A DNA stretch of 64,000 bases from Eledone cirrhosa (lineage: Eukaryota): NCBI GenBank assembly GCA_964016885.1, contig OZ024746.1:48980001-49044000 (forward strand). Reading direction: 5' to 3'. This document shows, one piece after another, positions 1-57,718 of the stretch. A model generated the notes under the pieces. It had not been told where the DNA came from. It worked only from the letters and a program-made list of their open reading frames with translations, and ran no database searches. The position numbers and the translations under genes are program-made. Position 1 is the first letter of the stretch. Every line of letters begins with the position of its first letter.

Positions 1-690
1 CGCACTTATACCTCGTATGAGGGTCCCTTTATTTCCGTCCCACCTATTTTATTTCTATTATTATTATTTATTTTTTTATTCTACATTATATATATATATA
101 TATATATATTTTTTAAATTTATTTATCTATTCTTTCACTTATTTGCTTATTTATTTATTTATGTATTTCTTTAGCCTAGCTATAGCGAGAGACTTATGTC
201 TTAGTAACCAGATTTTGCTTTTTTTTTTTCTCTCTCAGTACCTTTTATAGTTTTACCTTTCATTGTTCTACTTACCGTTTCGACCTCCTCCCCCTCCCCC
301 TCCCCAGTATCCTCTTTGACCTCACACCCAGCTGTAGCTGGCACTACCAACGCATGAATGGGTCTACTCCACCCCCTCTCCCTTTTTCCCCTACCGGCCG
401 GTTTAGCTACCCCTTCCCCTACCAACTTGCCATCACAGATTTACTACTAACTTGTGATGTGACCAATCCTGGTGATTATCTCTTTGACCATATATGGAAT
501 TACCCCTTGATAAGTTCGGCTATTTAAATACCAGAATAAATTTTCATTCAGTACAGAATTAGCCGTCGAAACGGCTTGAGCTCAGCCGTCGGGGTCTTAT
601 TTGTTCCTATTACCCACTCTACTACCCTAAGTATTGAGTACTTTGGTGCGTTATGGTCCACCTGGTTCCTTACCACATTTCCTTCGTTAT
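1..690 (+). repeat. Upstream pseudo-LTR (direct repeat)
   Basis: Near-identical to 3594-4271, differing by small indels in simple repeats. Confidence 0.92.
502..595 (+). ncRNA. Type I hammerhead ribozyme, U3-A8 core variant
   Basis: acccc-TTGATAA-g..cggcta/tagccg..c-GAAA-cggct/agccg-TC-ggggt: three helices, GUC cleavage triplet. Confidence 0.85.
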
Positions 691-780
691 CTAGCTCCTA
701 TCCCCGTAGTAGAGCACTTTCCGACCTTACCACACCGTATCCAGACTTTTCCTCTAAGCTCAATTTCTTTCACCCGCACC

Positions 781-2927
781 ATGCGAAAACACAATATCGA
801 CTTCTCTACCAAGAACATCCCAATCCCACCGAAAAAACTTTACCTTCGGATGCTCACGCAAAAAATCGATCTATTTGCGAAAAGACTTAGATGGAGAACT
901 TTTTTCTACGACAGATGCTGCGACAATCAGGACTTCGGTACCAAGGAGAGATTCGGATTTATTACCTACAAATCTCCCCCCCCCCCCCCGAACCCTTTGC
1001 TCTCACCCTTCGAGAATGACCTCTTCCAACTGGTCAAGAACCTTAAATTCAAACCCAGACACAACCGATTCCTACAAAAACTCCGTAGCAACTTAACAGA
1101 GTATGATAATACCAATGACATCATGGTGCATTCGGATAAAACTGGGATGGGAACCTATACTTTGTCAACCCCGACAGATACCACACACTGATCAGGAGCA
1201 GCCTAAACTCCACCTATAAAAAGGCTAACCACTCATGCATCGAGGACATTAATCGAGATGGACAACAAATTACCTCTAGCCTCGGGGTCGCCGACCGCAC
1301 CGAACCCCTAGACCCACGGACACCCTACTTCACACTGAAGGACCACAAATCCGATTTCGACCGTAAACCATCTATCAGGCTTATAAACCCAACTAAGTCC
1401 GACATAGGGAGAATCAGCAAAAAAATCTTAGACCACGTGATACCAAAAGTCAAGCAACACGCCTGACTTAGCCTATGGATCAACACCTAGGAAGTTATCT
1501 CATGGTTCAGCAATTTGGAGGATAAACGAGACACTAAATTTATCCAGTTCGACATAGAGAGCTACTATGCTTCAATCACCTTACCGCTACTTACTGCCGC
1601 CTTGGACTTCGCCGAAGCACTTGTACCCATCACCGACCAGGAAAGAAAAATCATCCTCCACGCCAGGAAGACAGTCTTACTCTTTGACAACTCCAAATGG
1701 ATAAAAAGAGCTCCTGACTCACCCTTCGACGTCAGCATGGGCGCTACGGATTCGGCGGAGGTCACAGATCTTATAGGATTATTCCTTATAGCCAAACTCA
1801 CCGATATGTTTCCTGCTTTCGGTGGTGGATTGTACCGTGATGATGCGCTCCTTACCCTTAAAGGGTACAACCCCAGTAGTACAGATCGGGTCCGCAAACA
1901 ATTAATCAGCTTCTTCCGCGACTGGGGATTTAAAATAACCCTACAAACGTCCCTGACCCGAGTTAATTTCCTGGACGTTACCCTCGATCTCAATAATGAC
2001 CTGTATTACCCATACAGGAAACCCAATAACAACGTGCACTACATCCACCGCCGATCTAACCATCCTAGGAACATCACCAACAACCTGGTCAAAGACATTT
2101 CCCTCCGTATATACCGTTTGTCAGCTAATGAGAAGATATTCGATGAACATGCGCCTTACTACAACCAGGCCCTTAAGCGGAGTGGTTTCCGGGAGGAAAT
2201 ATCCTACTGTCCAGCTCCCATTAGCAGAACCAGCAGGCGACACCGCCGCTCACGTAATTTAACATGGTTCAATCCTCCCCATAACGCCGAGGTGACAACT
2301 CCCATCGGGAAAATTTTCTTTAGGCTCATTGAAAAACACTTCCCACCACAACACCGCTACCACAACATAATTAACACAAATACCATCAAACTCTCTTACA
2401 GCACTACACCTAACTTCGCACAAAACATCGTCTCCTCCAACAACAAAAAACTCAACCCCGATGGAAGAAACAACCTAAATAGCACTGGAGAGCCGACCAG
2501 GAGGTGTAACTGTCCTGATAGATCCAGTTGCCCCCTCGACAACAGATGCAGAGACCATAATGTGATCTACCAGTGCAACGTTAGGACGGACACCTCTAAC
2601 AAAGCTTATATAGGATTAACCGCATGCGACTTCAAGACCCGGTTATACCAACACAGACTTACCTTCCGAAACTCGGCGCGGCGTCACGCCACTACACTTT
2701 CGGGCCACATATGGGACCTCATGGACAACAACATCAACTATGATCTCACTTGGAAATTACTGTCCAGAGCCAATTTATGCTCGGAGGAAACATTACAAAT
2801 GCTGTTTTCGACGGACCAACTCCTCAACAAGAAAGATGAACTGGTTACTGCATGTAAACACCGATTACGTAGGACTTACCTCGCCCTCAAACCCCACAAT
2901 GACCCGGGGGGTAGACTAGGGCTATAA
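781..2927 (+). pseudogene. PLE polyprotein (RT + C-terminal GIY-YIG endonuclease), disrupted
   Basis: N-terminus FSTKNIPIP; FDIESYYASI, DVSMGATDSAEV, LYRDDALL, FLDVTLDL, WFNPP, CNC..CPL..C, VIY..YIG motifs; 5-bp duplication frameshift near 1145; in-frame TGA 1464 and TAG 1488. Confidence 0.9.
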
Positions 2928-3593
2928 CACCCCACTTGCCTATTTTGTAATGGGTAACCCCTGCTTGCCAATGGAGACGTAAGACTTTCTTTTACATTCT
3001 TTTATCGCTTCCTCTATATTTCCCCCTTCCCCCATCCCTCCCTAGTCATTCTACCCCAGTTCCCTTTCTTTGTCGTCGTCTATTTCTCGCCCACCCGAGG
3101 TAGCCCATCGGTCCCTTGTAGCTTCAGCACCCCCACCCCCTCCCCTATTCTATGATAGATTTGGCTGACCCCTCTTTTTATAGCAGAGGTGTTAGACTTC
3201 GGATACTCGCCCCCTTCTCCGACCGCTGTCCCTTTTTTCCGTGCCTTCTATATTTCTTAGTGGCATCTTTGCTTTAATTTCTCGTTTATCCAGTATTTCT
3301 TTCTACTTTTACCCTTTTTTTTTGGGGGGGGGGGGGTGTTCCTGTATTAATTTTTACTTCGTACGATCTTTCATGTAGCTTGTATAAGACTTTTTGTTTC
3401 GTGGCGGTACCCTTAGAGTTAGCACTAGTATTTTTTTGCGGGACCCTGAATTATATTCTCGTACTAGTTTACTTTCTTGCACTGGGTGGTTGCTGGCCCT
3501 GTAATTGGGGTAGAAACCTTTATTATTTTCGTGGTAGTCTCTTTAGTATTCTGCCCCCCCCCCCCCTTTGTTGACCCGTCACCGTACGATACA

Positions 3594-4267
3594 CGCACTT
3601 ATACCTCGTATAAGGATCCCTTTATTTCCGTCCCACCTAGTTTATTTCTATTATTATTATTTTTTTTTTTTATTCTACATTATATATATATATATATTAT
3701 TTTTTTATTGATTTATCTATTCTTTCACTTATTTGCTTATTTATTTATTTATGTATTTCTTTAGCCTAGCTATAGCGAGAGACTTATGTCTTAGTAACCA
3801 GATTTTGCTTATTTTTTTTCTCTCTCAGTACCGTTTATAGTTTTACCTTTCATTGTTCTACTTACCGTTTCGACCTCCCCCCCCCCAGTATCCTCTTTGA
3901 CCTCACACCCAGCTGTAGCTGGCACTACCAACGCATGAATGGGTCTACTCCACCCCCTCTCCCTTTTTCTCCTACCGGCCGGTTTAGCTACCCTTTCCCC
4001 TACCAACTTGCCATCACAGATTTACTACTAACTTGTGATGTGACCAATCCTGGTGATTATCTCTTTGACCATATATGGAATTACCCCTTGATAAGTTCGG
4101 CTATTTAAATACCAGAATAAATTTTCATTCAGTACAGAATTAGCCGTCGAAACGGCTTGAGCTCAGCCGTCGGGGTCTTATTTGTTACTATTACCCACTC
4201 TACTACCCTAAGTATTGAGTACTTTGGTGCGTTATGGTCCACCTGGTTCCTTACCACTTTTCCTTCG

Positions 4268-4271
<4 letters not shown>
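3594..4271 (+). repeat. Downstream pseudo-LTR (direct repeat)
   Basis: Near-identical to 1-690; ends ccttcgtta then (TA)n. Confidence 0.92.
4083..4176 (+). ncRNA. Type I hammerhead ribozyme, U3-A8 core variant (second pseudo-LTR copy)
   Basis: Same motif as 502-595, offset 3581 bp. Confidence 0.85.
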
Positions 4272-5671: not shown

Positions 5672-6025
<354 letters not shown>

Positions 6026-18122: not shown

Positions 18123-18156
<34 letters not shown>

Positions 18157-18517: not shown

Positions 18518-19437
<920 letters not shown>

Positions 19438-20695: not shown

Positions 20696-21044
20696 GGAAG
20701 AGATAGATAGATAGACAGATAGATAGAAATATATAGAGAGAGCAGGGGAGAAATAGATAGATAGATAGAGAGAAAGAGAGCTAGGGAGAGAAAGATAGAT
20801 AGATATGTTTCTTTATTAGCCACAGAGGCACAAAAGAAGGAGACACATACAAAGGGGGAAGTTTACATACAATAAAAACGTGTAAAATGTTATCACAAAT
20901 GCAATTTAAAAAGTTAGTCGATTTTCCCCAATAGGGGGAGACAGTTTATATGGGTAACACATACCCCCCAAAAAATGTGCAACCCTCATCTGCAGGAGTA
21001 CGAAGAGTTTGTACTCCTTTCCTCTCCTCCTCCTTTTCCTCAAC

Positions 21045-24473: not shown

Positions 24474-24491
24474 TTAAAAGAGGAAAAGAGA

Positions 24492-26430
24492 TCACTCACC
24501 CTTCGTCTCCTGGGGACCAGGCTTTACGATTTCCATGGGGGTGTTGGAGCGGTTGTCTGGGTGGGTGGTGGTGTCTTGCGGGGTGGGGACGGAGATGTTT
24601 GGTGGGGTGGGGTCTGGTGGGATGGGATGGCGGTGTCTGGCGTAGGGAGACATTTGAGAAGGACACGGTTAAGTGGTTTCACGCAGGAATTCCCCACATC
24701 CTTTTCAAATGTTTCTTTTAGGGACCTATAAGTTTGTATAGGGACCCTAATCAGTTTTAGGTTCAATTTTTTGTTATTTTTAATAGAGTGGGCGAAAGTT
24801 TTCCCTTCGGTTTTCACTGAAGGGTTGTTCGTGATGGTCTCCATTAGTGTTTTGTTTTCAGTGTTTATGTAAGTGTAAGTGTAATTTTCTTGTGTTGTGT
24901 TTGTTTTTGTCTGTAGTTCTTGTGTGTGCTTTCGTTTTGTTGTAGGTATTTTGTTTTCAGGAGGTGGGGGTTTTGTTTGTGATGTTTTTGTTGTTTGTGT
25001 TGGTAGTTGTATGTTTGTGGTAGTGTTTGCTGGTCTTTTGCTTTTGTGATGTCTTTTCTTTCTTTTCGAGCGATGGGGTTCTCCCTCGTCTTCACTGGGT
25101 GATGGCGAGAGAGCCTCATCTGTTGTATCGTCTGTGTGATTGGGGAGGGGTATGTCTTGGGGAGCTGTTGTGTCTGTGTGTGATTTTGCAGTGGTTTTAG
25201 GTGGAGTGGGGTTGGGTGGGACTGTGTTTGTTGTGGTTATTTTTGTGTGTTGGTGTTGTTGTTGTTGTGGTGGTGTTGGTGGTTGTGTTGTTTTGATGGG
25301 TGTCGGCAGAAGAGCCTTTTTTTGACTCATTAATTTAGGACAGGAAGCCCTCAGGTGACCCCCTGCTAAAGCAATGGTAACATGAAGGCCGCATACCCTC
25401 AACCGAAAAGTTTATGAAGGTGAGTCCGTCCAGGAGTACACGTTGTGGGATCATAGCTATCCGCTCTGGGCTCATTTGCACCAGAACTTCAACGCTAGTC
25501 CCATTGAATACATCTCTGGGCGACTTTCCTACTGACAGTATTCTGTCTTCATCAAAATTGATGAAGCCGCACAATATCCACCATATGTTCACCTTTGGTG
25601 TGACACTCGTGATTTTAATCTTTTGTGTCCTTTTTCCCATGTATGTAGGGAAAAATGTATACAGGTTGGATACAATTGGCGACACAGAGTAATTTTGGGC
25701 CGTCAATTGATCCTTCATGAGTACCGAAATACTCCCAAAGAGTTTGCTTCTTTGAATGAATGAAATATCATTCATTGAATTTTTGAAAACCAGTTCAATT
25801 TTTTCTGTGACAATTGGACTGGTTTTCGGGTAGAATTGGAAACTGTCCTAAAAACTATCGTTTTGAGAGCAGTTTCCTTGCGAATTTCTACCGGAGAATT
25901 GATGCTGAAAGCACCATTTTTTTCGAAAGTGACATATCTCCTAGCGTCCTTTAAAAGTTATTCGGCATTTGTTATGTCGAGATATGTCAGATTCTCCTTT
26001 TTCTGAACTGTCTGTGCAAAGGAGATTTTTGGTTTCTTTGTGGAATTATCCGTGTTGGTGGTGTTGTCATTATTGTTCTTATTGTTGTTGTTATTCTTGT
26101 TGTCACTGATGTTGATATTATTCGTATTTTCCTTGGTGTTGGTGTTGGTGTTGTTGTTGTCTTTGATGCTGTTGTTATTGGTGTTGTCTTTATTTTTTTC
26201 TTTGTTGTTGTTGTCATTGTTGTTTTTATCATCATTATTGGTGTTGTTGTTATTTTTGTTGTCATTGAACTGTTTGGTGTCAATTGTGTTGTTTGGATAT
26301 GAATTTGTTTTTACAATTTCATTTCGTCTTTCCATCTCCATAGTATCTAGGGAAGAAGACGATGTTGACTGCGAACTATGTAGTCTTTCCGACTCTCAAC
26401 CACCATTATCGTTGAACACAGCGTTCATAA
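24492..26430 (-). pseudogene. LINE ORF1 (gag-like), frameshifted
   Basis: Asn-rich N-terminus, KISFAQTV, CYHCFSRGHLRASC CCHC knuckle split by a frameshift, Pro/Thr-rich tail. Confidence 0.75.
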
Positions 26431-26755
26431 CGTAATCAAACTTCTTACGATATTTTTTCCAAAACTCGATGGACAAAAAATTTTTCGAACAAATATTTCG
26501 CCCCTGTAGGGGCGAAAATGAGTTGACCCACCACCTGAGGCTCCAGACGGGGGGTCAAGTTACACAATAATATAAAATTTAACTGAAAACTCACTTTTTT
26601 TTCTTACATAAAGTAACGGAAACTTCTCCGCGAAGGTACACACGTCTGGTAGAGAGAGAGATAGATATATAGACAGATAGATAGAAATAGAGAGAGCAGG
26701 GGAGAAATAGATAGATAGAGAGAAAGAGAGCTAGGGAGAGAAAGATAGATAGATA

Positions 26756-27770
26756 TGTTTCTTTATTAGCCACAGGGGCACAAAAGAAGGGGACAAATAC
26801 AAAGGGGGAAGTTTACATACAATAAAAACGTGTAAAATGTTATCACAAATGCAATTTAAAAAGTTAGTCGATTTTCCCCAACAGGGGGAGACAGTTTATA
26901 TGGGTAACACTTACCCCCCAAAAAATGTGCAACCCTCATCTGCAGGAGTACGAAGAGTTTGTACTCCTTTCCTCTCCTCCTCCTTTTCCTCAACCTACAG
27001 GCTGATATAGAGTGAAGGCCCATTCACTCGGGCCATTCTCGCCACTTTCACCCCCCTTTCATAAAACTTGCTGGGGTACAGCACCTCTCTCTCTCCATCC
27101 TGATTCTTCTTCCAAAGTGGTATTTGTAAAAAAGAATCAGTTGTTGGCCGGAGAGAAAGGTGTCTGACCTCAGCCCTTTCAACCTTGTCCACCATACAAC
27201 CTCTTTCGCCATAGCTATCACACAAAGGAAAACCGCCTCTCCTTCGTTTTTGAAGGAGGGTGGCGGTTTGATCATGACAATGGACTCGGTGGTCAACCGG
27301 ATTGGTCCCACCCGCGACAATAGTCGTTCTACATAGCCCCACAGGTCAGTGACGCCCGGGCAGTGTATGAATGCGTGCGCGACGGTTTCTTCGTCTCGCA
27401 CGCACCTCGGACAGATCTTTTTTGCAGGGTCCCTGCCCGGGCGCCCATGTCTGTAGAGCTTGTCTCGAACTGGTAGAGCTCCTCGGTAGCACTGCCAGGC
27501 CAGGGACTTTTGGAAGTTGTCCATCGGTCCCGGGCGGAAGATCCTACCGAACAGACTGGCCAGTTCATCTTCCTCTACGCCTAGAGTTTCACCGAAAAAA
27601 ATTTTCAAACGAATATTTCGCCCCTGTAGGGGCGAAAATGAGTTGACCCACCACCTGAAGGTCAGACGGAGGGTCAAGTTACACAATAATATAAAATTTA
27701 ACTGAAAACTCACGTTTTATTCTTACATAAAATAACGGAAACTTCTCCGCGAAGTTACACACGTCTGGTA
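26756..27770 (-). mobile_element. Internally deleted copy of the same LINE (5' ~175 bp fused to 3' ~840 bp)
   Basis: 27595-27770 matches 26475-26650; 26756-27594 matches 20806-21641. Confidence 0.9.
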
Positions 27771-27870
27771 GAGAGATAGATAGATAGATAGACAAATAGA
27801 TAGAAATAGAGAGAGAGAGCAGGGGAGAAATAGATAGATAGATAGAGAGAAAGAGAGCTTGGGAGAGAAG

Positions 27871-27924
<54 letters not shown>

Positions 27925-27925
<1 letters not shown>

Positions 27926-30575
27926 TTCTTTATTTACCATAAAGGCATAAAAAGAAGGGACAAATACAAAGGGGGAGCTTACATGAAATCGAGTAAAAAG
28001 GGTATAAAATGAAAATAATCGAAAACAACCTCAAAAGGGAGGGGACGTGATGGGGGTTGCACACACCCCCGAAAAAGTGTGCAATCCTTTGCCCGGGGAG
28101 CACATGGAGAAGGTGCTCCCCTCTCCTTCACTTCTTTACCTACAGGATGGTATACAGAGAAGGCCCATTTACACGAGCCATTCTCGTCCCTATCACCCAC
28201 CTTTCATAAAACTGCTTGTGGCCAAGCACCTCTCTCTCCATTCTTATCCTTCTTCGGAAGAAGTAGACCAGACTATGGCCAGAGAGGATGTTGCCTGACC
28301 TCAGACCTTTCAATCGTGTCCACCAAACAACCTCTTTCAACATGGCTATTACGCACAGAAAAACCGCCTTTGCTTCCTTTGTGAAGAGGGGGGGGGGCGG
28401 CTTGATTGTCACCACGGACTCGGCAGTCAATCGAATCGGCGCCACCTGCGACAGTAGTCGTTCGGCGTAGCCCCACAGATCAGCCACGCCCGGACATTGC
28501 ACCAATGCGTGCGCAACGGTTTCTTCGTGACGCACACATCTAGGGCAAATCTTTTTCGAGGGATCCTTGCCCGGGCACCCGTGTCTGTAGAGCCTCTCTC
28601 GAACGGGTAGAGCCCCCCGGTAGCACTGCCAGGCTAATGACTTCTAGAAGTTGTCCATTGGTCCCGAGCCGAAAGTCCTACCGAACAGGCTGGCTAGTTC
28701 GTCCTCTTCCATGTCCAGCGACTCTCCAAGGGTGTCATCGCTAGCCACCAGCCCTCTATAGAATGATGAGGTGGATTCTCCACCGATGGCCTGGCCCGCT
28801 TGCCAGAGAGCCCTGAGCGCCTGGGCACACTCAGTGTGCCAGTCTCCCAGTTTTCCGGATCTTTGCTTGACCCAGGACTGCAGCTCGGTGAGCGAGACGA
28901 GTCTCGGAAAGGCTCGTTTCACGAACGGAGCCCACACCGGTTTACCAGTGAGGAATACCTGCAGGTGCCGTAGCCTTAATGCGTGCCTACGCATCATCAA
29001 CCATGGCATCCCCAGCCCTCCTTTCGAAGGTTGTTGGCAGCAGATGGATCTTCTCACCATAGGAGGGAGCTTCTTCCACAGAAATTGGAAGAGCATGCGT
29101 TCCATGGTGGTGAGTGTTTCCTTAGGTCAAGGCACGACAGTCAGGCGGTAGTAAGTGACGGACGCTATGTAAATGTTCACCACCTCCGCCCGACCTTTTA
29201 GGGACAGCTTACACTTGGCCCATTTCTTGGTTAGTGCAAACACCTTGTTCGTAACCTCGTCCCAGTTCTTTTCCACATGGAGGTCCGGTCCAAACCAAAC
29301 CCCAAGCAACTTCACCGGGCCCTCAGTCCAGTGTCCGACGACACCGTCGGGAGGCATCGGTCTGCCTCTCCACGTTCCGAGTTGCAGCCCGATGGATTTT
29401 TACCGGTTCAGTTTCGCTCCTGACAACCTTTCGTAATCCTCCAGTAAGGTACCGATCGCCTAGATCTCCGAGTCGGTCGATACCATTACTGTTACGTCAT
29501 CAGCGTAGGCGGACACCGCTTTGCTCAATCCTGGTTCCAGGGGGATACCCTGCAACAACTCCAACTTCCTCAGTAAAGGCTCGAGAGTCAATATGTACAG
29601 AAGGGAGGAGAGAGGGCACACCTGTCGAATGGATCGTGTGATTTCGAACGGCTTTGAAAGGTAGCCGTTCACCTTGATCCTAGAACAGTTGTGGTTGCTA
29701 TGTAAGGCAGTGATCCAGCCTCTGAAAACAGGACCGAACCCAGCCGCCGCTAGCACCGCATCCAGGTAACCATGGTCGACCCTATCGAAGGCCTTAGACT
29801 GATCCAAGTTGATCAGGGCCCCACCGAAGCCGGGTTTGTTGCCAACCCTCTCTATGATGTATCGTATGAGGTGGAGGTTATCGTGAATGGACCTGGATGG
29901 GATAGCACATGTCTGCGCATCTCCCACCAGGCCACCCACGACAAGCGCCAACCTTTTTGCTAACACCTTGGCCAAAATTTTTAACTCTGTGTTTAGCAGA
30001 GTTATGGGCCGAAAATTATTTATACTATCCCCCTTGTTCTCGTCCTTTCTCACCAGCGAGACTACGCCCTTGGCTACAGAACAAGGAATTCTCCCGTTCT
30101 GCTGCCAAATGCAGTAGACCGCTTCGAGGATTTCGGAGAAGAAGACCGGCATTGCTAAATAAATTTCGTAAGGTATACCATCGAGACCTGGAGATTTGTG
30201 TCTGCTGCATTGGCTCAGCGCATCCCCGATCTCATCAGCCGAGATTGGTCCCTCGCAGGACTCGAGAGACGCGGCAGGCCGTCGAGGTATGGACCGAAAT
30301 CCACGTCCCCGCCCGGACCCTCGCCTCCCCCGAATAATCGGGCAAAGTGCCTTTGAAAGGCCTCGCACATCTGCTTAGGTTCCCGGATCACCCGTCCATC
30401 CTCGTCTTGCAAAGACCGGATGGTGGATCGATTTCCACTCTTAGCTTCTGTCACGCGGACCCAGCCAACGGCTTTGGCCCCCTCATTACCTAGAGCACGT
30501 ATTTTACTTCGAATGACGCAGCCTTCGTGCTTTGCATCGAAAAACTGGTTCAAGGCCGTCCTCGATGCCAGCACT
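27925..30575 (-). mobile_element. 5'-truncated Tx1/L1-like LINE, sister subfamily
   Basis: KSPGLDG, NFRPITLLNTELKILAK, DQSKAFDRV, AYADDV; frameshifts; (GATA)n on both sides. Confidence 0.9.
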
Positions 30576-32329: not shown

Positions 32330-35300
32330 TTGTTATTCCTTGAATCTCAGTCATTGATGTTGGTTAACTGGAAAGTCCGTTGGATTGAATATCAAGCCAC
32401 TACCTGCAGCCTCAGATATTCAGGACGTATCGGAGGGTTCTTGCTGTTCCAAGCAAGCATGCCTTTTGAAGCGTTCCAAAAAGCGTGAAGGGGCCGATTT
32501 TCTTTAACCATCCCTGGAAACTTTTGGAGATAGTCCCCAGTGCGCCTATGACAATCGGGATCACTTTGACTTCATGGCAGTTCCAAATCCTTTTCACCTC
32601 CCACTTTAGGTCCTGGTATCGGTTAATTTTCTCCCTCTCCTTCTCTTGCACTCTCGTGTCGAACGGGCAGGCAACATCCACAATCAAACACGATCTTTTT
32701 TCTTTGTCCACAACCACCAGGTCAGGTCTATTGTGTTCCAGTTTTTTGTCCGTCTGTATCCTAAAATCCCACAGCACCTTCACCTGATTGTTCTCCATCA
32801 CCGCCTCTGGCCTATGCTCATACCATTTCTCAGAATGTGGTAGATTGTTTACTTTGCATAGGTGCCAGTGGATCACCCTGCCCATCACATCGTGTCTCCA
32901 GCCCTTATAGTGGGTCTGGGCTAGGTGTTTACACTCGGACACAATGTGAGCCACAGTCTCCTCTCTCTCTCCACAGATCCTGCACAGTGGGCTAGCCTCC
33001 TCCTTGTAGATATGGTGCTTCAACCACTTCGTTTTGAGGGCCTGCTCCTGCGCAGCCATTAGCATTCCTTCTGTAGCCTTTTTGAGGTCTCCTCTTCTCA
33101 ACCAGTTCCATGTCTGTGGATCTCTAAATTCAGTTTTCTCAAAGAAGGTACTATGAAGGGATTTTCCCTTAAGGCTGCTCTTCCTCCTTGATGTTATTTC
33201 CTCCTTGGACATCCCCTGGCCTACTGTCCCCTCCTTCAGTACAGTTCTGAGCATTGGCTCCTTACTATAGGTCACGTATTTGTATAGGTTGTTTTTCTCC
33301 ATCTGAACACAGTCCTCTATGCTGATAAGACCTTTTCCACCCTCAGATCTCCTTAGGTAGAGTCTATCGACATCACTCCTCTTGTGGAACATGTTGTAGA
33401 TAGTCAATAGCTTCCTAGTCTTCCTATCCATTTCTTTTTGTTCAGCAACATTCCATCGGGAATTTACTGCGCTTATGGCATTTCTGCTGTTCAGATGTGA
33501 CTTCAATACGCTCCTTACTCTCCGAATGTATTCAGTTCTTAACAATTCCTTCATTTTTTTGTTCTTTATGCCATCAGCCTCCAGAACGCCCAAATACTTG
33601 TATCCTTCCTCAGAGTCAATTTCCTTTATCATCTCACCTGTTGGTATCTGGATCCCGTTACTTCTGCTCAACCTACCCCTCTTCATCACAATGACTCCAC
33701 ATTTACCAATACCAAACTGCATACATATATCACTGCTGAAAATACGGACAGTGTCAACAAGCACATCCAACTCCTTCTCACTTTTCCCGAAGAGCTTAAG
33801 ATCGTCCATGAAGAGGAGGTGATTGATGGTAAGCTCTCCCCTTCCCAACTTGTATCCTGCTCTCACTTTTCGCAGCATAATGGTCAAGGGCATCAGGGCA
33901 AGGACAAACAACAGAGGGGACAGGCTATCTCCCTGGAAGATACCTCTCTTGATCTTCACGCTTCCCAAGGATACTCCAGTTGATGTCAACTCTGTCTCCC
34001 AGGACCCCATACTCCTGCCTAGCAACTGTCTGATGTTATCTGCCACCCTGAAGATCTCCAGGCTTTTGGTGATCCAGGAATGAGGCACCATGTCAAATGC
34101 CTTTCTGTAGTCTATCCATCCCATGGCAAGATCAGTGTGTCTCCTCCTGCAGTTCCCCATTACCATCTTATCAATAAGCAACTGGTCCTTTGTACCACGT
34201 GACTTCTTTCGGCATCCTTTCTATTCGTCCGGTAACAAGTTGTTTGTGTGGAGGTGATGGTAGATTTCCTCAGACACAATGCTCGTCAACAGTTTCCACA
34301 TTACGGACAGACATGTGATAGGTCTATAGTTGGTAACATCATTACCCTTGATTCGGTCTTTCATTATCAGAACTGTGGTACCTTTTGTCAACCACTCTGG
34401 CACCTCACCCGACACCAAGCAGTCATTGAACATGGCCGTCAGCTTCGGGTGGAGGGATGTTAAATGTTTAATCCAATACCCCTGCACACCATCTGGGCCT
34501 GGTGATTTCCAGTTGGTTAGTTTTTTGGCCTGCCCCTTAAGAGTTTCAACTGTGATACTCAAATCAGTTTGTTGCTGTGCCTGCTCACCGATCTCCCTCT
34601 GTACTGTCTCAATCCACCCTGCCTGGGCATTGTGTCTAACATCCTGCTCCCATATTCCTCTCCAGAATGTTTTAGCTTGTTCCGCCCCAGGGATCAAGTC
34701 GTTGCCTCTTTCTTTCCCCTCAAGCTGTCCAAACAGCATCTTCTGGTTGTTGTCGAACATGCGGTTCTGTTTATACTGACTGACTCTGTTCTCGTATCGC
34801 CTGATTTTGGCACTCTTTGCTACAATGCGTTGCTTCAATTCCTCTATGATAATATTTAGCTTTTTACTCCTAGTTTTGTATTTTATTTCCAGTCTATTTT
34901 TAGTGCCTATGTTTTTTAGTGTCCCATTCAGTAGTGACTCAAGCTTTCCTATGTCATTTCTCATTTCCCCGATTTGCCCACTCAGTCGCTTCTTCCACCA
35001 CGGCTCTGCTCTTTCTTGTCTGTTGTTTCCTCTCGCTTTTATACCAAGTAGTTTCCTCACCGTATTTGCTGTTGCTTTGAGGATATTGTTGCACTGGTGA
35101 AGACTCCTCGCCTCAAGGTATGGGATGACTTTGTTTACCTTAGCTGTTGTTTCTTTTAACTTTTTCCTGTCTACAAATCTTAGGTTCATAGGTCACCCAC
35201 TATCATTGTTCAATTCATCTACCACTAGATTTAGGATGTCAACCGAATCTTGTCCTAGCCCGTCAGCATTCATCTCCTCAGTGGCCGTATCTCTGTTCCA

Positions 35301-35900
35301 GGTATTATTTATCTCAGTATTCAGATCATTGTCTGCTTCGGGTGGTTCCTCCGTTCTCAGGACCTCCTCACCTTCATTTCCCACCGGCTCGCTTGTCTGG
35401 CATACTACACCCGCCATCTCCAAGCCATTCTCTCTGCTCAGTTCCTCCAGTTCCAGCTCGCTTATCCACCCATTAGTTCTTATTACCCGAGCCTGCCCGG
35501 CCAATTTTTGTTCATCTAATTTAAATAAACCAATCTCGTTCCAGATGTTATGCATCCGTCTCCTGTAGCCCCTCTCCTTGGGGTTACTTTTCAGGTAGCA
35601 TTGCATAACAGTTCTATTCAATTCTTTCGTCCAGTTGGTTCTGGCCCCTTTCCTTCTTCTTCTTCCTCCAACATCAGCAGTATTTGGTTGACAGTCAGGT
35701 TCCTGCTGCTGAGCCAGGGGCCACCTGTTGGGTGAGAGTCTGTCACATGACGTTCTAGTCTCCATTTCACCGTTATTCGAACTGTTTATGTTCGATATTT
35801 AAACACTCTTATCTAGGATCGGCGAATGTATGTTTACATAGCCATCTGTGGATCCGCCATCCCACTTGGCCCTTGTGTGGCATTATCACCACGCTGTATA
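32330..35900 (-). mobile_element. Near-full-length Dong/R4-clade non-LTR retrotransposon
   Basis: Single RT-RLE ORF; 3' end abuts (AAT)n at 32275-32328, the known Dong-type target. Confidence 0.9.
32412..35765 (-). pseudogene. RT + CCHC + restriction-like endonuclease ORF with two in-frame stops
   Basis: NYRPITCL, DYRKAFD, QGDSLSP, FMDDLK, CRIC..H..EC, RH, PDLVVVD..VDVACP; TGA at 35193-35195 and TAG at 34221-34223 in one frame. Confidence 0.92.
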
Positions 35901-36929: not shown

Positions 36930-38281
36930 TTGTTCTTATTTTCCTTCATTATTGTTTCTGAGATATATGCCGAGTGTCTTCCCGACACCTAGGGCAAATA
37001 AATTCACAGTGTGCATTGGTAAGCCAGTTAATACAGCACATAGATTATAATTAGAAAAAAAAAACAAAAAAAAACAAACATATATACTCATGTGCATATG
37101 CATATGTAAATACAAGGAGGGATATCAGTCTTACAGAGATAGTGCTCTTCTCAATACGTGTGCAATACCAGTCAAAACAATGTTTTGCCCCTCATGCAGA
37201 GAGGGCAAACCAGGAATCATTCGCAAAAATTGTTCTGTTCCTTTCTTGATCATACCCAGTCCTCCCACAATCGGTGGTATTGTAACGGCCTTGAGGTGCC
37301 ACATTTTCTCAATTTCAATAAGCAGATCTTTATATTTTCGTAGCTTGTCAAACTCTTTTGCCGCGATATTGTGATCACATGGGACGCTCATATCTATCAA
37401 CAAACAGACCTTGTTATGTTGATCTTTTATAATGATGTCAGGTCTATTTGCTTTTATGGTCCTGTCAGTATGTACAGGAAAGTCCGAGAGAATTGTTACT
37501 TTTTCTCCTTCAGTTACAGCCTCAGGGTGATTGTTGTACCACTTGTTTTCAGCTTTGATTTTGTAATGCCGACATATTACCCAGTGTAGATATTGGCCAA
37601 CTCTGTCATGTCTATATTCGTATTCTACTGGTGCTAAAACTTTACATCCAGAGACTAAGTGATCCACTGTTGCAACACCGGCATTGCAGAATCGGCACTT
37701 TGGTTTTATTCCGTTTCTCCTCACATTGGCCTGGTAATTACGAGTCAATAAGCTTTGATCTTGGGCAGCTAAGATGAAGCCTTCACTCTCCGCCTTTAGC
37801 CCTGAACTACGTAGCCACTGACGGGTGTGCTTTTGGTCAACATCAGCTTGCTTGCTACGGGCCACATATTTGCCATGCAGAGGTTTGTGCTCCCAATTTG
37901 ATGCTAATTGTCCTTGCCCTTTTACTTTTGCCAGTGATTTTATGTGCTTAGCAACATCAGTTGCATCGGTTTCTTTAGTCTGTCCAGCCTGGGTATCAAG
38001 CATGAGATCAGTAGCATATTTTTTGCTCTCCTTCAAGATAGAATGAAGCATCTTACTTCTCTCATGCTTTTCAACAAGTTTCAGCATATAGTCCTTAGAT
38101 GTTTCAAGGTATTTGGCCAGACCAATGATGGTGGTCTTGTAAGCAAGTTCAAATTGGATCAGGCCACGGCCTCTCTGAGTTCTAGGAAGGTAAAGACGAT
38201 CCACATCTGCTTTTGGGTGATGCATCCTATTACAGGTCAGTAGCTTACGGACTTTGGTGTCGATTCTTTTGATTTTACTCA
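36929..38281 (-). mobile_element. 5'-truncated Dong/R4-clade LINE, second family
   Basis: HHPKADVDRLY, AAQDQ, CRFC..H..GC, RHD, RPDIIIKD..IDMSVP; (AAT)n on both sides. Confidence 0.9.
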
Positions 38282-38312
<31 letters not shown>

Positions 38313-38313
<1 letters not shown>

Positions 38314-38524
38314 GGGCGGTGGACTGGCAGAATCCGTAGAGCGTCGGACAAAATGCTTAGCGGCATAGAGTTATGGCCCTTTACATTCTGAGTTCAAATC
38401 CCACTGAGGTTAACTCTGCCTTTCATCCTTACGGGGTCGATAAAATAAAGTACCAACTGGAGTTGATATAACCGACTTTCCTCCTCCTCTTCAAATTGCT
38501 GGCCTTGTGCCTATATCAGAAACC
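38313..38524 (+). mobile_element. tRNA-derived SINE
   Basis: A/B-box-like tggcagaatc and gagttcaaatccc; core gcctttcatccttacggggtcgataaaataaagtacc shared with other copies. Confidence 0.85.
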
Positions 38525-39180
38525 ATTATTATTATGACAAATGATATGTCGCTAAACATTGGACTTTAGAGAGTCACGTCCATCAACTGCAGTTAGGTTT
38601 CCAATACCAGAGAGACAGTTGATGCGTTTTAAAGATAATGTTAGAGTATAGAGTGAATATTGTAATTAAGGTTTGTCAACATTTCCATCCACCCATGGAA
38701 GAGAAGAGTAAATAATATATTTACTCCTGCACGCTGCTGTCGTCGATTATAAGTAGACGTTTAATTTGAATATAATGAAAGCAAAATATTACTTAGAATC
38801 ATTGTATCCAATACCACAGATGTCCATATATAAGTGGCTTGCTATTGATTGATTTATCAATATTTAATATAAATTGAGATATATTATTCAAATATAACAA
38901 TGTAATAAGTGTGTTGAGGTGAAATCAATCAAGTGTGACATTGGGAATCTTAGACAAAATTTGGTTTTGATGTTTTGATATTGGCATGGTTAAAAGGATG
39001 TTTTAGAATTTAAAATAGTGATATGGTAAAATGTCTGATGTGGAATATCTTCCAATAGGTTATGAATACAACAACACGTGCACCTCTGTAGGGTGAGGGT
39101 GCTTATGTGATGGCGACGTCAGTGGATGGTTCTGACTATATTTATGACGATTTTGTAAGTATTATTTCAGATTGTTTATA

Positions 39181-39475
39181 TAAATATAAATTCAGCGAGA
39201 ATCGTATTTCGGCGAGTAGAAATAAGCAAAACTCAATTTCCGATTTGTGTGGCAAACCCCCCAAGGACCAAAAGAGACCAGAGCAATAAACATATGTTAT
39301 AAAGGCCATATAATGATCGAACAAGGATATCACTTTCTCAACAGGTATTTTGTTCTACGCCAGCGTTTTGAATCACTCAGTGTTTTGAAAGCACATGTGT
39401 AACGGTACAGGGGAGAAAACCCCAGATTTTGGCAAATGAATTCAGTATGTGTAATCGATGCAAAAACTGCATAAA
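39181..39475 (-). mobile_element. Family X partial copy lacking the middle ~200 nt
   Basis: Reverse complement aligns to 39655-39815 joined to 40005-40130. Confidence 0.7.
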
Positions 39476-39486
39476 TATATATATAT

Positions 39487-40122
39487 AATTCCTAAGCCGA
39501 AATACGATTCTCGCTAATTTATATTTGTATTAATCTCCAGAGTCTAGCTATTGACCAGTTAATTTTCTTGATTTTTTTAGTTGATTTTATTAACTGATGA
39601 ATAGCTTATGTTAACTTTAACCATTCTGTCGAGAGCTTTATTAGATTTGTGATGTTTTGCATTCTTGCAATATTATACACAACTGAATTCATTCGCCTAA
39701 AATAAGTGTTGCCTCCTTTGCTGAACTCCACGGGGTCAGTAATAGTCACACTTTGAATTAGCAGTTGAACTAAAACCTGTTGATAAAGTGGCTTCCTGGT
39801 TCAATCATCTTGCCAGAAGCCTAACATTATTTATATAAGCGGACAGTACTTGATTTAGGACTCGCAGAAACCCAAATACTGGATTTTACCAACCTTCCAG
39901 AGGTCCGGGTAAATTTTCAATCACATATATTTTTATTATTTGACCCCGAATTACTTGGTCGTTTCTTTGGGTGTGCGAATGTTTGTTTAACCATCGTCTC
40001 AGTGTTTTGGCCTTGAACGTATGTTGTAGCTCAGGTTCAACTGAATCATCGAGCGTTTGCCACACATCTCGGAAGTTGTTTTTCGTTAATTCCTAAGCCG
40101 AAATACGATTCTCGTTAATTTA

Positions 40123-40211: not shown

Positions 40212-40252
<41 letters not shown>

Positions 40253-40680
40253 CGGGCACACATATATATATATGCACGTATCAGTTTACCGAACATTTAT
40301 TATAATGTTCGCTTTGTTCGTTTGTAAACAAACGAACAGCCTGATTTACGCCGTACAGTGTGTAGGCAACCACGTCACCTTTTTGTTCAACACTGACACA
40401 GGAACGATGTACTAGTTTCAAGCTTGTTAGCTATCGTCAGCACCGTATACCCTTCTGCCAGATGGTTGAACGTCCGAAAGTATATACTTTCCTGATGAAA
40501 ATTAACGGCTGAGCAGCCTAATTTGCATATCGTGTGAGTTCAGTCGGCCAGGCGCACCGAAAACGATAAATGGAATAGAATGAAACGAAATTTCATTTCT
40601 CACTCTTAGTACGGCACAAACTTAAATGTAAGTATGTATGTATACGTACATACATATATGTATACAGACGTACAGTAGTA

Positions 40681-40770
<90 letters not shown>

Positions 40771-41198
40771 CAGGCACACATATATATATATGCACGTATC
40801 AGTTTACCGAACATTTATTATAATGTTCGCTTTGTTCGTTTGTAAACAAACGAACAGCCTGATTTACGCCGTACAGTGTTTAGGCGACCACGTCACCTTT
40901 TTGTTCAACACCGACACAGGAACGATGTACTAGTTTCAAGCTTGTTAGCTATCGTCAGCACCGTATACCTTTCTGCCAGATGGTTGAACGTCCGAAAGTA
41001 TATACTTTCCTTATGAAAATTAACGGCTGAGCAGCCTAATTTGCATATCGAGTGAGTTCACTCGGCCAGGCGCACCGAAAACGATAAATGGAATAGAATG
41101 AAACGAAATTTCATTTCTCACTCTTAGTACGGCAATTACTTAAATGTAAGTATGTATATATACGTACATACATATATGTATACACACGTACAGTAGTA

Positions 41199-41266
<68 letters not shown>

Positions 41267-41704
41267 CAGGCACATATACATATATGCACGTATCATTTTA
41301 CCGAACATTTATTATAATGTTCGCTTTGTTCGTTTGTAAACAAACGAACAGCCTGATTAACACCGTACAGTGTTTATGCAACCACGTCGCCTTTTTTCTT
41401 TTTTTTTTTGAAATTTGCATATCACTCGGTATGCAAATTAGGCTGCTCAGCCGTTAATTTTCATAAGGAAAGTATATACTTTCGGACGTTCAACCATCTG
41501 GCAGAAAGGTATACGGTGCCGACGATAGCTAACAAGCTTGAAACTAGTACATCGTTCCTGTGTCAGTGTTGAACAAATAGGTGACTTGGTTGCCTAAACA
41601 CTGTACGGCGTAAATCAGGCTGTTCGTTTGTTTACAAACGAACAATGCGAACATTATAATAAATGTTCGGTAAAATGATACGTGCATATATATATATGTG
41701 CCTG

Positions 41705-41746
<42 letters not shown>

Positions 41747-42985
41747 TACTACTGTACGTCTGTATACATACATGTATGTACGTATACATACATACTTACA
41801 TTTAAGTAAGTGCCGTACTAAGAGTGAGAAATGAAATTTCGTTTCATTCTATTCCATTTATCGTTTTCCATGCGCCTGGCCGACTGAACTCACACGATAT
41901 GCAAATTAGGCTGCTCAGCCGTTAATTTTCATAAGGAAAGTATATACTTTCGGACGTTCAACCATCTGGCAGAAAAGTATACGGTGCTGACGATAGCTAA
42001 CAAGCTTGAAACTAGTACATCTTTTCTGTGTCAGTGTTGAACAAAAAGGTGACATGGTTGCCTAAATTTCGTTTCATTCTATTCCATTTATCGTTTTCGG
42101 TGCGCCTGGCCGACTGAACTCACTCGATATGCAAATTAGGCTGCTCAGCCGTTAATTTTCATCAGGAAAGTATATACTTTCGGACGTTCAACCATCTGGC
42201 AGAAAGGTATACGGTGCTGACGATAGCTAACAAGCTTGAAACTAGTACATCGTTCCTGTGTCAGTGTTGAACAAAAAGGTGACGTGGTTGCCTAAACACT
42301 GTACGGCGTAAATCAGGCTGTTCGTTTGTTTACAAACGAACAAAGCGAACATTATAATAAATGTTCGGTAAACTGATACGTGCATATATATATATGTGTG
42401 CCGGTATGTATATATAAATATATATGCATACTACTGTACATCTGTATACATATATGTATGTACGTATACATACATACTTGCATTTAAGTAAGTGCCGTGT
42501 AAGAGTGAGAAATGAAATTTCGTTTAATTCTCTTCCATTTATCGTTTTCGGTGCGCCTGGTCGACTGAACGATATGCAAATTAGGCTGCTCAGCCGTTAA
42601 TTTTCATAAGGAAAGTATATACTTTCGGACGTTCAACCATCTGGCAGAAAAGTATACGGTGCTGACGATAGCTAACAAGCTTGAAACTAGTACATCTTTT
42701 CTGTGTCAGTGTTGAACAAAAAGGTGACATGGTTGCCTAAACACTGTACGGCGTAAATCAGGCTGTTCGTTTGTTTACAAATGAACAAAGCGTACATTAT
42801 AATAAATGTTCGGTAAAATGATACGTGCATATATATGTGTGCCTGTATGTATATATATATATATATATGCATACTACTGTACGTCTGTATACATATATGT
42901 ATGTACGTATACATACATACTTACATTTAAGTAAGTGCCGTATTAAGAGTGAGAAATGAAATTTCGTTTCATTCTATTCCATTTA
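40150..42985. repeat. HHR-containing tandem units (family B, sister of family A): minus arm 40150-41395, plus arm 41430-42985
   Basis: acggtg-CTGACGA-tagct aaca agctt-GAAA-ctag-TA-catcgt (e.g. 42211-42253); about 6 HHR copies; unit ~445 bp plus variable (TA)n. Confidence 0.9.
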
Positions 42986-50925: not shown

Positions 50926-51240
50926 TCCATCATTATTGTATGGTGTAAGTATTAGTATATTCGAATATTTGGTCTAGTTAATAAGCTGTATATACAGTTA
51001 ATTAACCTAAATTTTACTCTATCTAATAAATGTGTATGCTTGCAACTGAAGTTCTACTTTACGTTCTCTCGGTCATCCGTCAGGAATATCAGCATATCTC
51101 AGTTTCTGATGATCCATTGAAAGGGTGAGGTATATATATATATACATACATACATACTTATATACATACATACATTCATACATACATACACACAAACAGA
51201 CACACACACACACGCGCGCGCACACATATATATATATGTA

Positions 51241-53335
51241 TATATATTAGAAAGATCGAGTATCGAAAAATCGGCGCACGAGTTAACGAAAAACGAAATC
51301 CGATATGAGCGGCAGAGGGCTCAATAATTCAGATGAATCAGAGCTATAACTATCGTTAAAATACCGTCACATATAGAACAAGTCTACAATCAACCATACG
51401 ATTTAAAATCGATAAAGGAAGATTCGGGCCAAACAGATAAAAAATATCAATAAAACAATACGTCAATAATTTAAATGAATGTAAAATCATACCCGGACCC
51501 ACTAGAAAGGTGTTAAATCTAGCTTCATGGGTTTCTGTAAATCCTTAGACAGTACTCTATCAGCTCACATATAAATATAAAAGCCTACTAGAATAAGTGG
51601 AATGGAGTTTACGTCGTCAACGAGTTTTATCCTGGCGGCAAAGGAGTCAACTAGCGGTGAAAAACGCACATGGCATTAGACAAGGGAGATGACCCCTATA
51701 TCCGCGAAAATAATTCGAGTGAATGTGGAAATACACATATCGAATTAGAGTGCTCAATAGACATGTTAAAATAAAACAAAAGCTATTCATCACTCAATAG
51801 AATCGACAAAATATGAGCAATAAAATTAACTGGTGGATAGCTATGTCCAGAGCTAAATATATTAGAAAGATCGAGTATCGAAAATTCGGCGCACGAGTTA
51901 ACGAAAAACGAAATCCGATATGAGCGGCAGAGGGCTCAATAATTCAGATGAATCAGAGCTATAACTATCGTTAAAATACCGTCACATATAGAACAAGTCT
52001 ACAATCAACCATACGATTTAAAATCGATAAAGGAAGATTCGGGCCAAACAGATAAAAAATATCAATAAAACAATACGTCAATAATTTAAATGAATGTAAA
52101 ATCATACCCGGACCCACTAGAAAGGTGTTAAATCTAGCTTCATGGGTTTCTGTAAATCCTTAGACAGTACTCTATCAGCTCACATATAAATATAAAAGCC
52201 TACTAGAATAAGTGGAATGGAGTTTACGTCGTCAACGAGTTTTATCCTGGCGGCAAAGGAGTCAACTAGCGGTGAAAAACGCACATGGCATTAGACAAGG
52301 GAGATGACCCCTATATCCGCGAAAATAATTCGAGTGAATGTGGAAATACACATATCGAATTAGAGTGCTCAATAGACATGTTAAAATAAAACAAAAGCTA
52401 TTCATCACTCAATAGAATCGACAAAATATGAGCAATAAAATTAACTGGTGGATAGCTATGTCCAGAGCTAAATATATTAGAAAGATCGAGTATCGAAAAA
52501 TCGGCGCACGAGTTAACGAAAAACGAAATCCGATATGAGCGGCAGAGGGCTCAATAATTCAGATGAATCAGAGCTATAACTATCGTTAAAATACCGTCAC
52601 ATATAGAACAAGTCTACAATCAACCATACGATTTAAAATCGATAAAGGAAGATTCGGGCCAAACAGATAAAAAATATCAATAAAACAATACGTCAATAAT
52701 TTAAATGAGTGTAAAATCATACCCGGACCCACTAGAAAGGTGTTAAATCTAGCTTCATGGGTTTCTGTAAATCCTTAGACAGTACTCTATCAGCTCACAT
52801 ATAAATATAAAAGCCTACTAGAATAAGTGGAATGGAGTTTACGTCGTCAACGAGTTTTATCCTGGCGGCAAAGGAGTCAACTAGCGGTGAAAAACGCACA
52901 TGGCATTAGACAAGGGAGATGACCCCTATATCCGCGAAAATAATTCGAGTGAATGTGGAAATACACATATCGAATTAGAGTGCTCAATAGACATGTTAAA
53001 ATAAAACAAAAGCTATTCATCACTCAATAGAATCGACAAAATATGAGCAATAAAATTAACTGGTGGATAGCTATGTCCAGAGCTAAATATATTAGAAAGA
53101 TCGAGTATCGAAAAATCGGCGCACGAGTTAACGAAAAACGAAATCCGATATGAGCGGCAGAGGGCTCAATAATTCAGATGAATCAGAGCTATAACTATCG
53201 TTAAAATACCGTCACATATAGAACAAGTCTACAATCAACCATACGATTTAAAATCGATAAAGGAAGATTCGGGCCAAACAGATAAAAAATATCAATAAAA
53301 CAATACGTCAATAATTTAAATGAATGTAAAATATA
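51241..53335 (-). repeat. Family X tandem array: 3.4 near-identical 615-bp units
   Basis: Units start 51246, 51861, 52476, 53091; only isolated substitutions seen; TA repeats at both ends; strand inferred from G-U pairing. Confidence 0.9.
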
Positions 53336-53995: not shown

Positions 53996-54491
<496 letters not shown>

Positions 54492-54526
54492 TATATAATA
54501 ACTTGTGTGTTACACCTCTATTCTTT

Positions 54527-54569: not shown

Positions 54570-54810
54570 TACCACAACTCCTTCGTTATATATATATATA
54601 TATAACCAAGGAGTTGTGGTACGGAACAAGATGCATCATAATGCACCAGAGTACTCAATACTTAGGGTTAATCCAGAAATAGCCGTCTAAACGGCTTGAG
54701 CTCTGCCGTCGGGGTCATACTTTTTTCCTATTTCCCACTCTACTACCCTAAGTATTAAGTACTCTGGTGCGTTATGGTCCATCTCGGTCCTTACCACAAT
54801 TTCTTTGTTA
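54569..54810. mobile_element. Short derivative of the Naiad pseudo-LTR 3' end with an inverted arm
   Basis: 54675-54810 resembles 555-690; 54603-54668 is the inverse of its 3' part; 54569-54590 is a further 3' tip. Confidence 0.85.
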
Positions 54811-54959: not shown

Positions 54960-55270
54960 ATACTTTGGGAGGGTCATGTTGCCAATAAGAAACACACGCA
55001 CCAGTTGCTTTCACTTCAATTTATTATATATTTATAAATTTACAAATTTATAAATTTCTGGTTGGTTGGTTGGTTCCACAACCAGATAGTTGTTTATATA
55101 TAGTCATAGTTCTTTATGACTATATATATAAACAACTATCTGGTTGTGGAACCAACCAACCAACCAGAAATTTATAAATTTGTAAATTTATAAATATATA
55201 ATAAATTGAAATGAAAGCAACTGGTGCGTATGTTTCTTATTGGCAACATGACCCTCCCAAAGTATAACAA
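54955..55270. repeat. ~315-bp near-perfect palindrome
   Basis: Arms are reverse complements about a 6-nt loop at 55109-55114. Confidence 0.9.
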
Positions 55271-57668: not shown

Positions 57669-57680
57669 ATGTGTGTATAT

Positions 57681-57718
<38 letters not shown>

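Follow-up and report, generated by a model that had tools for sequence, protein, structure and literature searches.

A putative type I hammerhead ribozyme in a tandem, non-coding retroelement family of Eledone cirrhosa

Among described systems, the animal non-LTR retrozymes come closest to the repeat family reported here, which we call family X. In the portions of PMC7229834 and bioRxiv 10.64898/2026.07.22.740005 available to us, these elements, like family X, consist of non-coding units arranged head to tail, each carrying one type I hammerhead; low GC content and a location beside Penelope-like elements (PLEs) are also shared. The 601–615 bp units of family X fall within the 51–972 bp range that the accessible part of that preprint gives (Li, Clavereau & Pollet 2026), while exceeding the 170–400 nt retrozyme RNAs covered in the corresponding part of Cervera & de la Pena 2020 (PMC7229834). 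The ribozymes in the same portions have short canonical helices, whereas family X combines a U3 core and a mismatch at 10.1/11.1 with a 78–80-nt stem II domain and a 35-nt stem III. By its tandem layout and lack of coding capacity, family X would belong with the animal non-LTR retrozymes, a class characterized by unit-length linear and circular RNAs; our placement is drawn from genomic DNA.

The ribozyme itself is closest to the hammerheads in the pseudo-LTRs (pLTRs) of PLEs, which share the type I topology and (TA)n targeting of family X in what we could consult of PMC8557442 and PMC4209133. In the accessible portion of the S2 table of Craig et al. (PMC8557442), 10.1/11.1 mismatches are common in Hydra-clade hammerheads, U·U being common and C·A occurring in PLE-X1_cBra. 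The U3–A8 covariant is found in schistosome Cercyon PLE hammerheads in the available part of PMC4209133, and the large helix III of fungal PLE ribozymes resembles that of family X in the same portions of these two papers. The consulted sections of PMC3088659 treat U3–A8 as a known natural covariant and list U·U at 10.1/11.1. In contrast to family X, all 34 of the 34 rows seen in the S2 table have a core beginning CUGA and a stem II domain of about 54 nt at most, and PLEs carry an ORF, which family X lacks. A halophile hammerhead variant with U3 and G8 carries an insertion in the available text of PMC7151607; the accessible part of PMC3088659, section 9, gives no rate for it.

U3·G8 in PLE hammerheads was not found in the literature searched for that term. 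The union of a U3 core, a long stem II, and a long stem III in a retrozyme was likewise not found in the literature searched, although supplements and subscription papers could hold it, and a search for hammerheads with octopus or cephalopod Penelope returned no paper on family X.

Family X and its candidate partners

The window, by which we mean the whole 64,000-nucleotide stretch analyzed, is AT-rich animal repeat DNA with numerous (TA)n runs as well as LINE fragments and tandem arrays. Family X is represented by four insertions, X39, X39inv, the X51 array, and X5.8 (Table 1). X39 and X51 are homologous, with 59.5% identity over 625 aligned positions, and the motifs GAAACC, GGUC, and CGGGU are identical between them at 15/15 positions. 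Three other blocks of at least 12 identical nucleotides lie in the unit, near 39554, 39595, and 40078. The 615-nt unit folds better than 20/20 shuffles (z −2.6). All four copies share their 3′ end, which lies in an AU-rich patch that meets a TA run; in X39inv this run is short. In the 601/615-nt unit the longest stop-free sense frame is 62–63 codons, and a tblastn search with the Hydra proteins of the window found no match in family X. Two features of a non-LTR retrozyme are present: consecutive tandem units, three at 615-bp spacing, each with a type I hammerhead motif, and a lack of coding sequence.

Table 1. Positions of family X copies, their predicted hammerheads, and a neighboring PLE in the window
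Feature	Position	Strand	Remarks
X39	39486..40118	+	one 601-bp unit plus repeated end, between (TA)n runs
X39inv	39177..39477	-	third subfamily, internally deleted
X51 array	51239..53332	-	3.4 head-to-tail 615-bp units, between (TA)n runs
X5.8	5790..6024	-	post-cut segment only, starting 9-10 nt past the cut position, 10-nt duplication, between (TA)n runs
X39 type I hammerhead motif, whole	39775..39910	+	descriptor match
X39 stem I 5′ strand ACCUG	39775..39779	+	partner is 39906-39910
X39 core U3 U4 G5 A6 U7 A8 A9	39780..39786	+	U3-A8, covariant of C3-G8
X39 stem II domain, 80 nt	39787..39866	+	A·A mismatch at 10.1/11.1, then GUG/CGC, UCC/GGA
X39 GAAA core, stem III, GUC	39867..39905	+	predicted cut after 39905
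X39 stem I 3′ strand CGGGU	39906..39910	+	first letters of predicted cleaved RNA
X51 hammerhead 1	51491..51625	-	core UUGACGA (U3·G8), C·A at 10.1/11.1; predicted cut after 51496
X51 hammerhead 2	52106..52240	-	descriptor match; predicted cut after 52111
X51 hammerhead 3	52721..52855	-	descriptor match; predicted cut after 52726
Hydra-clade PLE	1..4270	+	broken ORF 631-2927; pLTR hammerheads 502-595, 4083-4176

The blocks AGCUAU and AUAGCU, at 39554–39607 of the window, are both fully conserved between X39 and X51 and close a hairpin in the X51 fold; they could serve family X as a promoter or as an element recognized by the RT. Near 39594, a conserved UGAUGA was rejected as a ribozyme core, no GAAA layout following it.

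The family also occurs in sequencing data: 17 of the 24 runs listed, from 13 studies, contain at least part of the array, and eight hold half or more of its words; none of the listed runs with array sequence is recorded as RNA. Of four runs compared in detail, X11 alone, from another organism, covers the whole unit including the ribozyme. Its 615-nt tandem joint is present in one contig; contig ends near 51484 were left out because unitig ends are ambiguous. Over the ribozyme, runs X12 and X13 gave no depth, their matches being mostly short, AT-rich, and of low identity; X18, of which about 1% was read, yielded 0 reads.

These data bear on whether family X could consist of 5′-truncated pseudo-LTR pieces of an autonomous PLE located outside the window, with the hammerhead kept. 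In the available part of PMC8557442, PLEs normally show partial tandems, (TA)n targets, and pLTR hammerheads. However, X39 and X51, though 40% divergent, have a common unit junction and a length of 601/615 nt, family X carries no coding trace, and the same joint recurs in another organism's run, so that we assign this explanation a low probability. The 3.4-unit array might instead have grown at the DNA level, by unequal crossover or assembly collapse, in which case its length would be uninformative on ribozyme speed. Its units are 99.7–99.8% identical, with differences at only 1–2 positions, as such growth would predict, and the accessible portion of bioRxiv 10.64898/2026.07.22.740005 considers how retrozyme satellites may expand at the level of DNA. 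The clean (TA)n bounds of the array, the fixed 3′ end of the family, and a 5′ end beside the predicted cut speak against DNA-level growth, which we consider improbable.

The PLE at the start of the window offers a candidate for the type of autonomous partner that family X may use. Its ORFs read RWR, DKT, and CNCPDRSSC, and with RWK-like, DKT, CxCX5C, GIY-YIG, and (TA)n features it conforms to the Hydra clade, described in the available part of PMC8557442 by RWK-like and DKT motifs, a CxCX5C linker, a C-terminal GIY-YIG, a pLTR hammerhead, and (TA)n insertion. Its pLTR hammerheads have the UUGAUAA core of X39 (U3–A8) and a long loop II. Among 89 relatives of the PLE protein, the four named to species are from Argonauta (2), Octopus, and a ctenophore, at 37–41% identity. 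Because family X and the Hydra pLTRs in the window share no nucleotide homology, the partnership is suggested by the shared target, end anatomy, and core.

Further Hydra-type sequence is present in the window. A second fragment (4303–5650, minus strand) comprises a GIY-YIG end and lies tail to tail with the first element at one (TA)n; it holds a hammerhead-like motif at about 4515–4558 with a UUGAGAA core, a palindromic stem III, and a weak stem I. At 54570–54810 (minus strand) the first Hydra pLTR recurs as a short inverted-truncated fragment whose GAAA is damaged, and a third Hydra-type endonuclease fragment lies at 57270–57683 (minus strand), where the descriptor finds no hammerhead.

The hammerhead motif and its support

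X39 and X51 contain the elements of a type I hammerhead: a core with a 3–8 pair, GAAA … GUC, and stems I–III meeting at a junction with stem I open. In both families the 5′ half consists of five letters that pair with CGGGU, the core, and then letters that pair with GGAY..C. In X39, ACCUG followed by UUGAUAA lies about 80 nt upstream of the 3′ half; in X51, ACUCG precedes UUGACGA and the stem II domain is 78 nt. The GAAA … GUC segment (G12 A13 A14, A15.1–U16.1, H17) is present in X39 and in 3/3 X51 units, and stem III of X39 is formed by ACC/GGU plus the CUGGA/UCCAG hairpin. Stem I has 5/5 pairs in each family, its pairing being kept despite two one-sided changes. The G10.1–C11.1 closing pair, usual but not universal in type I hammerheads, is absent (A·A in X39, C·A in X51), and in both a G–C pair comes after the mismatch. 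As to further complementarity, the two families offer only 5–6-bp AU-rich stretches, at positions they do not share.

The 3–8 pair is the known covariant U3–A8 in X39, X39inv, and run X11, and the wobble U3·G8 in X51, where it occurs in all three units of the window. X39inv supplies a third subfamily, with a UUGAGAA core at 39341–39335 together with the stem I 5′ strand and the start of stem II. Comparison of the three subfamilies shows variation only at position 7 (U, C, or G) and position 8 (A or G); with the X39inv core included, position 7 is therefore free while 3–6 and 9, the other five core letters, are fixed, the usual hammerhead pattern. Six differences from the window are listed for run X11 between 51551 and 51641. 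One of these, seen in two contigs at full depth, changes G8 to A and so gives U3–A8 in the 615-bp family; another alters the mismatched 10.1 letter, and none touches any further core letter. A C3U change alone, the single U3·G8 variant, strongly impairs a hammerhead. Our literature search on C3U/G8A and U3–G8 impairment yielded nothing useful.

A descriptor scan of the window located the motif at 39780 and in 3/3 array units, against a background of 0.18 matches per shuffled 64-kb window (60 shuffles) and of 7/3000 and 3/3000 shuffled units. When the 3′ half was kept constant and the 150 nt upstream were shuffled, a 5′ half to match it appeared by chance in 6/40,000 and 11/40,000 trials. Over 18 hammerhead pairs in two families, 34 of the 36 cells pair, with one double change and five one-sided, whereas 19–49% pair in slid controls. 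The covariation shuffle control was not significant, 133–240 of 500 shuffles reaching the observed values, because there are only two full sequences. RNAalifold recovered stem I alone from the X39 and X51 pair, and MAFFT did not align four different hammerheads in register.

Rfam gave no hammerhead match at X39 or X51 with E up to 10, while a short control motif matched Hammerhead_HH9 (RF02275) at E 0.009, under its gathering score; the long stem II likely explains the miss. Every one of the matches listed from the whole-window Rfam scan (150 of 378) was to a microRNA model, and most of these fell on TA or inverted repeats. Since the motif escapes both Rfam and short-loop CUGANGA descriptors, long-armed ribozymes may be undercounted.

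For the 166-nt X51 region, the unconstrained MFE structure is the hammerhead three-way junction, with pairing probabilities of about 0.93 for stem II, up to 0.8 for stem III, and about 0.2 for stem I; the stability of the region is no better than that of shuffles (z −0.62). Stem I weakens with context, to 0.04 in 291 nt and about 0 in a circular monomer. For X39, a constrained 161-nt fold puts the hammerhead about 10 kcal/mol higher than the MFE, and a 291-nt fold 18, with probabilities of about 0 for stems II and III. X39 is accordingly predicted to misfold, and this copy (at 39858) has probably decayed.

Other placements of the ribozyme core and cut were tried and set aside. The sequence CUGAUAGA, inside the X51 stem II arm, has no stem I partner as a core and is not conserved in X39. 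GUA at +6 as the cleavage triplet, with ACCC/GGGU as stem III, leaves only three stem I pairs in X51 and gives no match in X39. Outside the window, a pattern for the 3′ half matched 74 metagenome loci, which we attribute to chance because 0/74 were similar to family X by blastn and 0/74 had the upstream core and stem I. The full-hammerhead pattern found nothing in viral contigs and two matches in prokaryote genomes, both GC-rich and, by eye, without stems.

An earlier pseudoknot reading

A first-pass annotation of this DNA had read 39858..39935 as a conserved pseudoknot whose order recalls an HDV-like nested one, while observing that L3 and J4/2 do not fit the HDV consensus. The letters on which it drew are in place: GGACU at 39858–39862, CAGAAACCC at 39865–39873, a hairpin at 39879–39900, and AGGUCC–GGGU at 39901–39910. 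A matching minus-strand motif likewise occurs in each of the three 615-bp units (51491–51545, +615, and +1230), and the hairpin changes in a truly compensatory way, CUGGA/UCCAG becoming CUAGA/UCUAG. The structure nevertheless extends over 39775–39910; the annotated interval takes in its 3′ half alone and missed the 5′ half 80 nt upstream; the GGACU from which it starts sits inside the X39 stem II domain.

The pseudoknot helices themselves fared poorly. GGAY/GUCC and ACCC/GGGU are fully complementary in both families (18/18 cells), yet 0/9 pairs change on both sides. As ViennaRNA cannot fold pseudoknots, each proposed helix was scored alone, and GGAY/GUCC had a pairing probability of at most 0.05 in 6/6 folds. 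ACCC/GGGU reached 0.13–0.8 in X51, depending on context, and 0.7 in the 291-nt fold. A further helix, proposed to covary from AAAUA/UAUUU to AUGAA/UUCAU, finds a 5-bp partner even in shuffled tails (48% and 11% of them) and is broken by one of the three array units.

HDV-like ribozymes also mark the 5′ ends of retroelement RNAs and have a superficially similar order of short helices, in the part of PMC6326823 available to us. However, family X lacks the 3-bp P3 with a 7-nt L3 and the C-R-R-A J4/2 that the same part describes, and HDV cuts at the opposite end of its motif. A descriptor built on these features (3-bp P3, 7-nt L3, J4/2), as given there, matched neither family, whether strict or relaxed with J4/2 kept. 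The HDV-like P1/P2 pairs show no double changes (0/9), the candidate P2 being at chance level, and no Rfam HDV family matches. A conserved RNA structure is retained from the earlier reading, and the nested HDV-like fold is not. An HDV-type cut would, moreover, precede GGAY, some 57 nt upstream of where the 5′ ends are observed, and a pseudoknot leaves the upstream UUGANRA and stem I complement unexplained at the chance rates given above. That an HDV-like or other nested pseudoknot of GGAY/GUCC and ACCC/GGGU acts here as a ribozyme or block is, in our estimation, highly improbable, its complementarity and the context-dependent ACCC/GGGU pairing notwithstanding.

The conserved pieces all fit a type I hammerhead instead: GGAY supplies the 3′ strand of stem II, GAAAC belongs to the core, GUC serves as cleavage triplet, and CGGGU forms the 3′ strand of stem I. 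ACCC/GGGU is plausibly a competing register that excludes stems I and III, and not a second pseudoknot stem; in X51, slipping of ACCC onto the downstream GGGU destroys both.

Copy ends, a possible mechanism, and neighboring repeats

The 5′ ends of the copies may relate the predicted cut to insertion. As the first-pass annotation had noticed, the array and the shortest copy begin close to the motif: the array starts at 53330–53332 and X5.8 at about 6024, and each lacks 8–10 nt after GUC. In the other two of the four copies the 5′ end is not near the cut, falling about +182 (X39, counted from the cut position in the preceding unit) and +350 (X39inv) after it. By a hand estimate, at least two of four ends would fall in a 12-nt window of a 600-nt unit with p of about 0.002. 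Of the 615 positions, 132 would allow an AT/TA joint, three of them in the 12-nt window. The inversion junctions of other hammerhead elements, inspected by eye, lie away from their cuts in 3/3 cases. The earlier suggestion of an RNA processing site thus survives as the likely one, because two of four ends lack only 8–10 nt after the predicted cut, while that of an RT-blocking structure loses weight, since the array extends across three internal copies of the motif.

Family X is a non-coding tandem element of about 600 nt, and we consider it likely that its putative type I hammerhead cuts the RNA after GUC, whereupon a PLE RT would copy the cut RNA into (TA)n. Tandem transcripts would self-cleave to give 5′-OH ends starting CGGGU and possibly circles. 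A Hydra-clade endonuclease would nick (TA)n, and internal priming from the nick, at a short AU-rich patch, would fix the 3′ end. The RT may then extend as far as the 5′ end that a ribozyme has made on a multimer with uncut inner ribozymes, or jump template. Joining of the cDNA end to (TA)n could use an AT microhomology close by, at the cost of 8–10 nt, and other copies would truncate earlier. Extension to a ribozyme-made end followed by microhomology joining to (TA)n is the simplest model for the observed 5′ ends. U3·G8, the 10.1/11.1 mismatch, and the competing ACCC/GGGU register would likely slow cleavage.

The main rival to cut-defined 5′ ends is a stall at stem I. A hammerhead-derived fold that no longer cuts would then serve as an RT signal or stop, the 5′ ends marking a stall just 3′ of stem I, and ends 3–5 nt 3′ of stem I are as expected from such a stall. 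The U3·G8 of 3/3 array units, the 10.1/11.1 mismatch, a stem I that is weak or absent in wider folds, and the low in vitro activity of PLE minimal hammerheads (in the accessible part of PMC4209133) would suit a non-cutting fold. On the other hand, the catalytic core letters are kept across families of 60% identity, with changes only at 7 and 8, and the array was copied through three internal motifs; we regard a purely structural role as quite unlikely.

If the hammerhead does cut, its peculiarities might themselves be functional. ACCC/GGGU, the slip register, is kept across the 40% divergence between X39 and X51. Family X could be a retrozyme family of cephalopod type whose hammerhead is slow by design and switchable: the U3·G8 or U3–A8 core, the 80-nt stem II arm, and the conserved slip register would let multimers survive while one cutting ribozyme sets the 5′ end of the insertion, a proposal to which we give a low probability. 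Were it true, 5′ ends across the genome would be direct genomic evidence that hammerhead cleavage defines the PLE template end, and a class of long-armed U3 hammerheads would have been missed by current searches. The function of hammerheads in endonuclease-bearing PLEs is stated to be still unclear in the available part of Craig et al. 2021 (PMC8557442). With two of four copies starting 8–10 nt past the cut, family X provides a cheap genome-wide test of whether cleavage sets the template 5′ end. The kind of element is already known, and to a specialist family X is a useful variant and no surprise.

Other hammerhead elements occupy the window. A 310-bp tandem unit in (TA)n at 9264–10920 comprises four minus-strand units followed by an inverted copy, each unit with a minimal type I hammerhead (CUGAUGA, U·U at 10.1/11.1, palindromic stem III, GUA; Rfam HH9 E 0.009); the inverted arm ends about 40 nt beyond the other arm, like a PLE 'tail'. 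A 419-bp family at 8358–9248, 10924–18125, and 40250–42980, with many decayed copies, has minimal hammerheads with CUGACGA, U·U, a palindromic stem III, and GUA, and is likely a second retrozyme family. Family Y (18680–19360, minus strand) carries a type I hammerhead with CUGAUGA, A·G at 10.1/11.1, and a 49-nt stem II domain; its cut is predicted after 18762, it has a 5′ inversion, and a 38-nt patch is common to it and X5.8 (79%).

Broken LINE copies with Pfam matches to endonuclease and RT lie at 21000–30400, 32412–35800, and 37131–38393 (all minus strand). C-terminal fragments beside (TAT)n runs look like R4/Dong-type restriction-like endonuclease elements, and the SINE at 38.3 and 46 kb is presumably an Octopus repeat. 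Long near-perfect inverted repeats adjoin (TA)n at 54090–54500, 54960–55270, and 7080–7890, and are probably inverted-truncated insertions of other TA-targeting elements.
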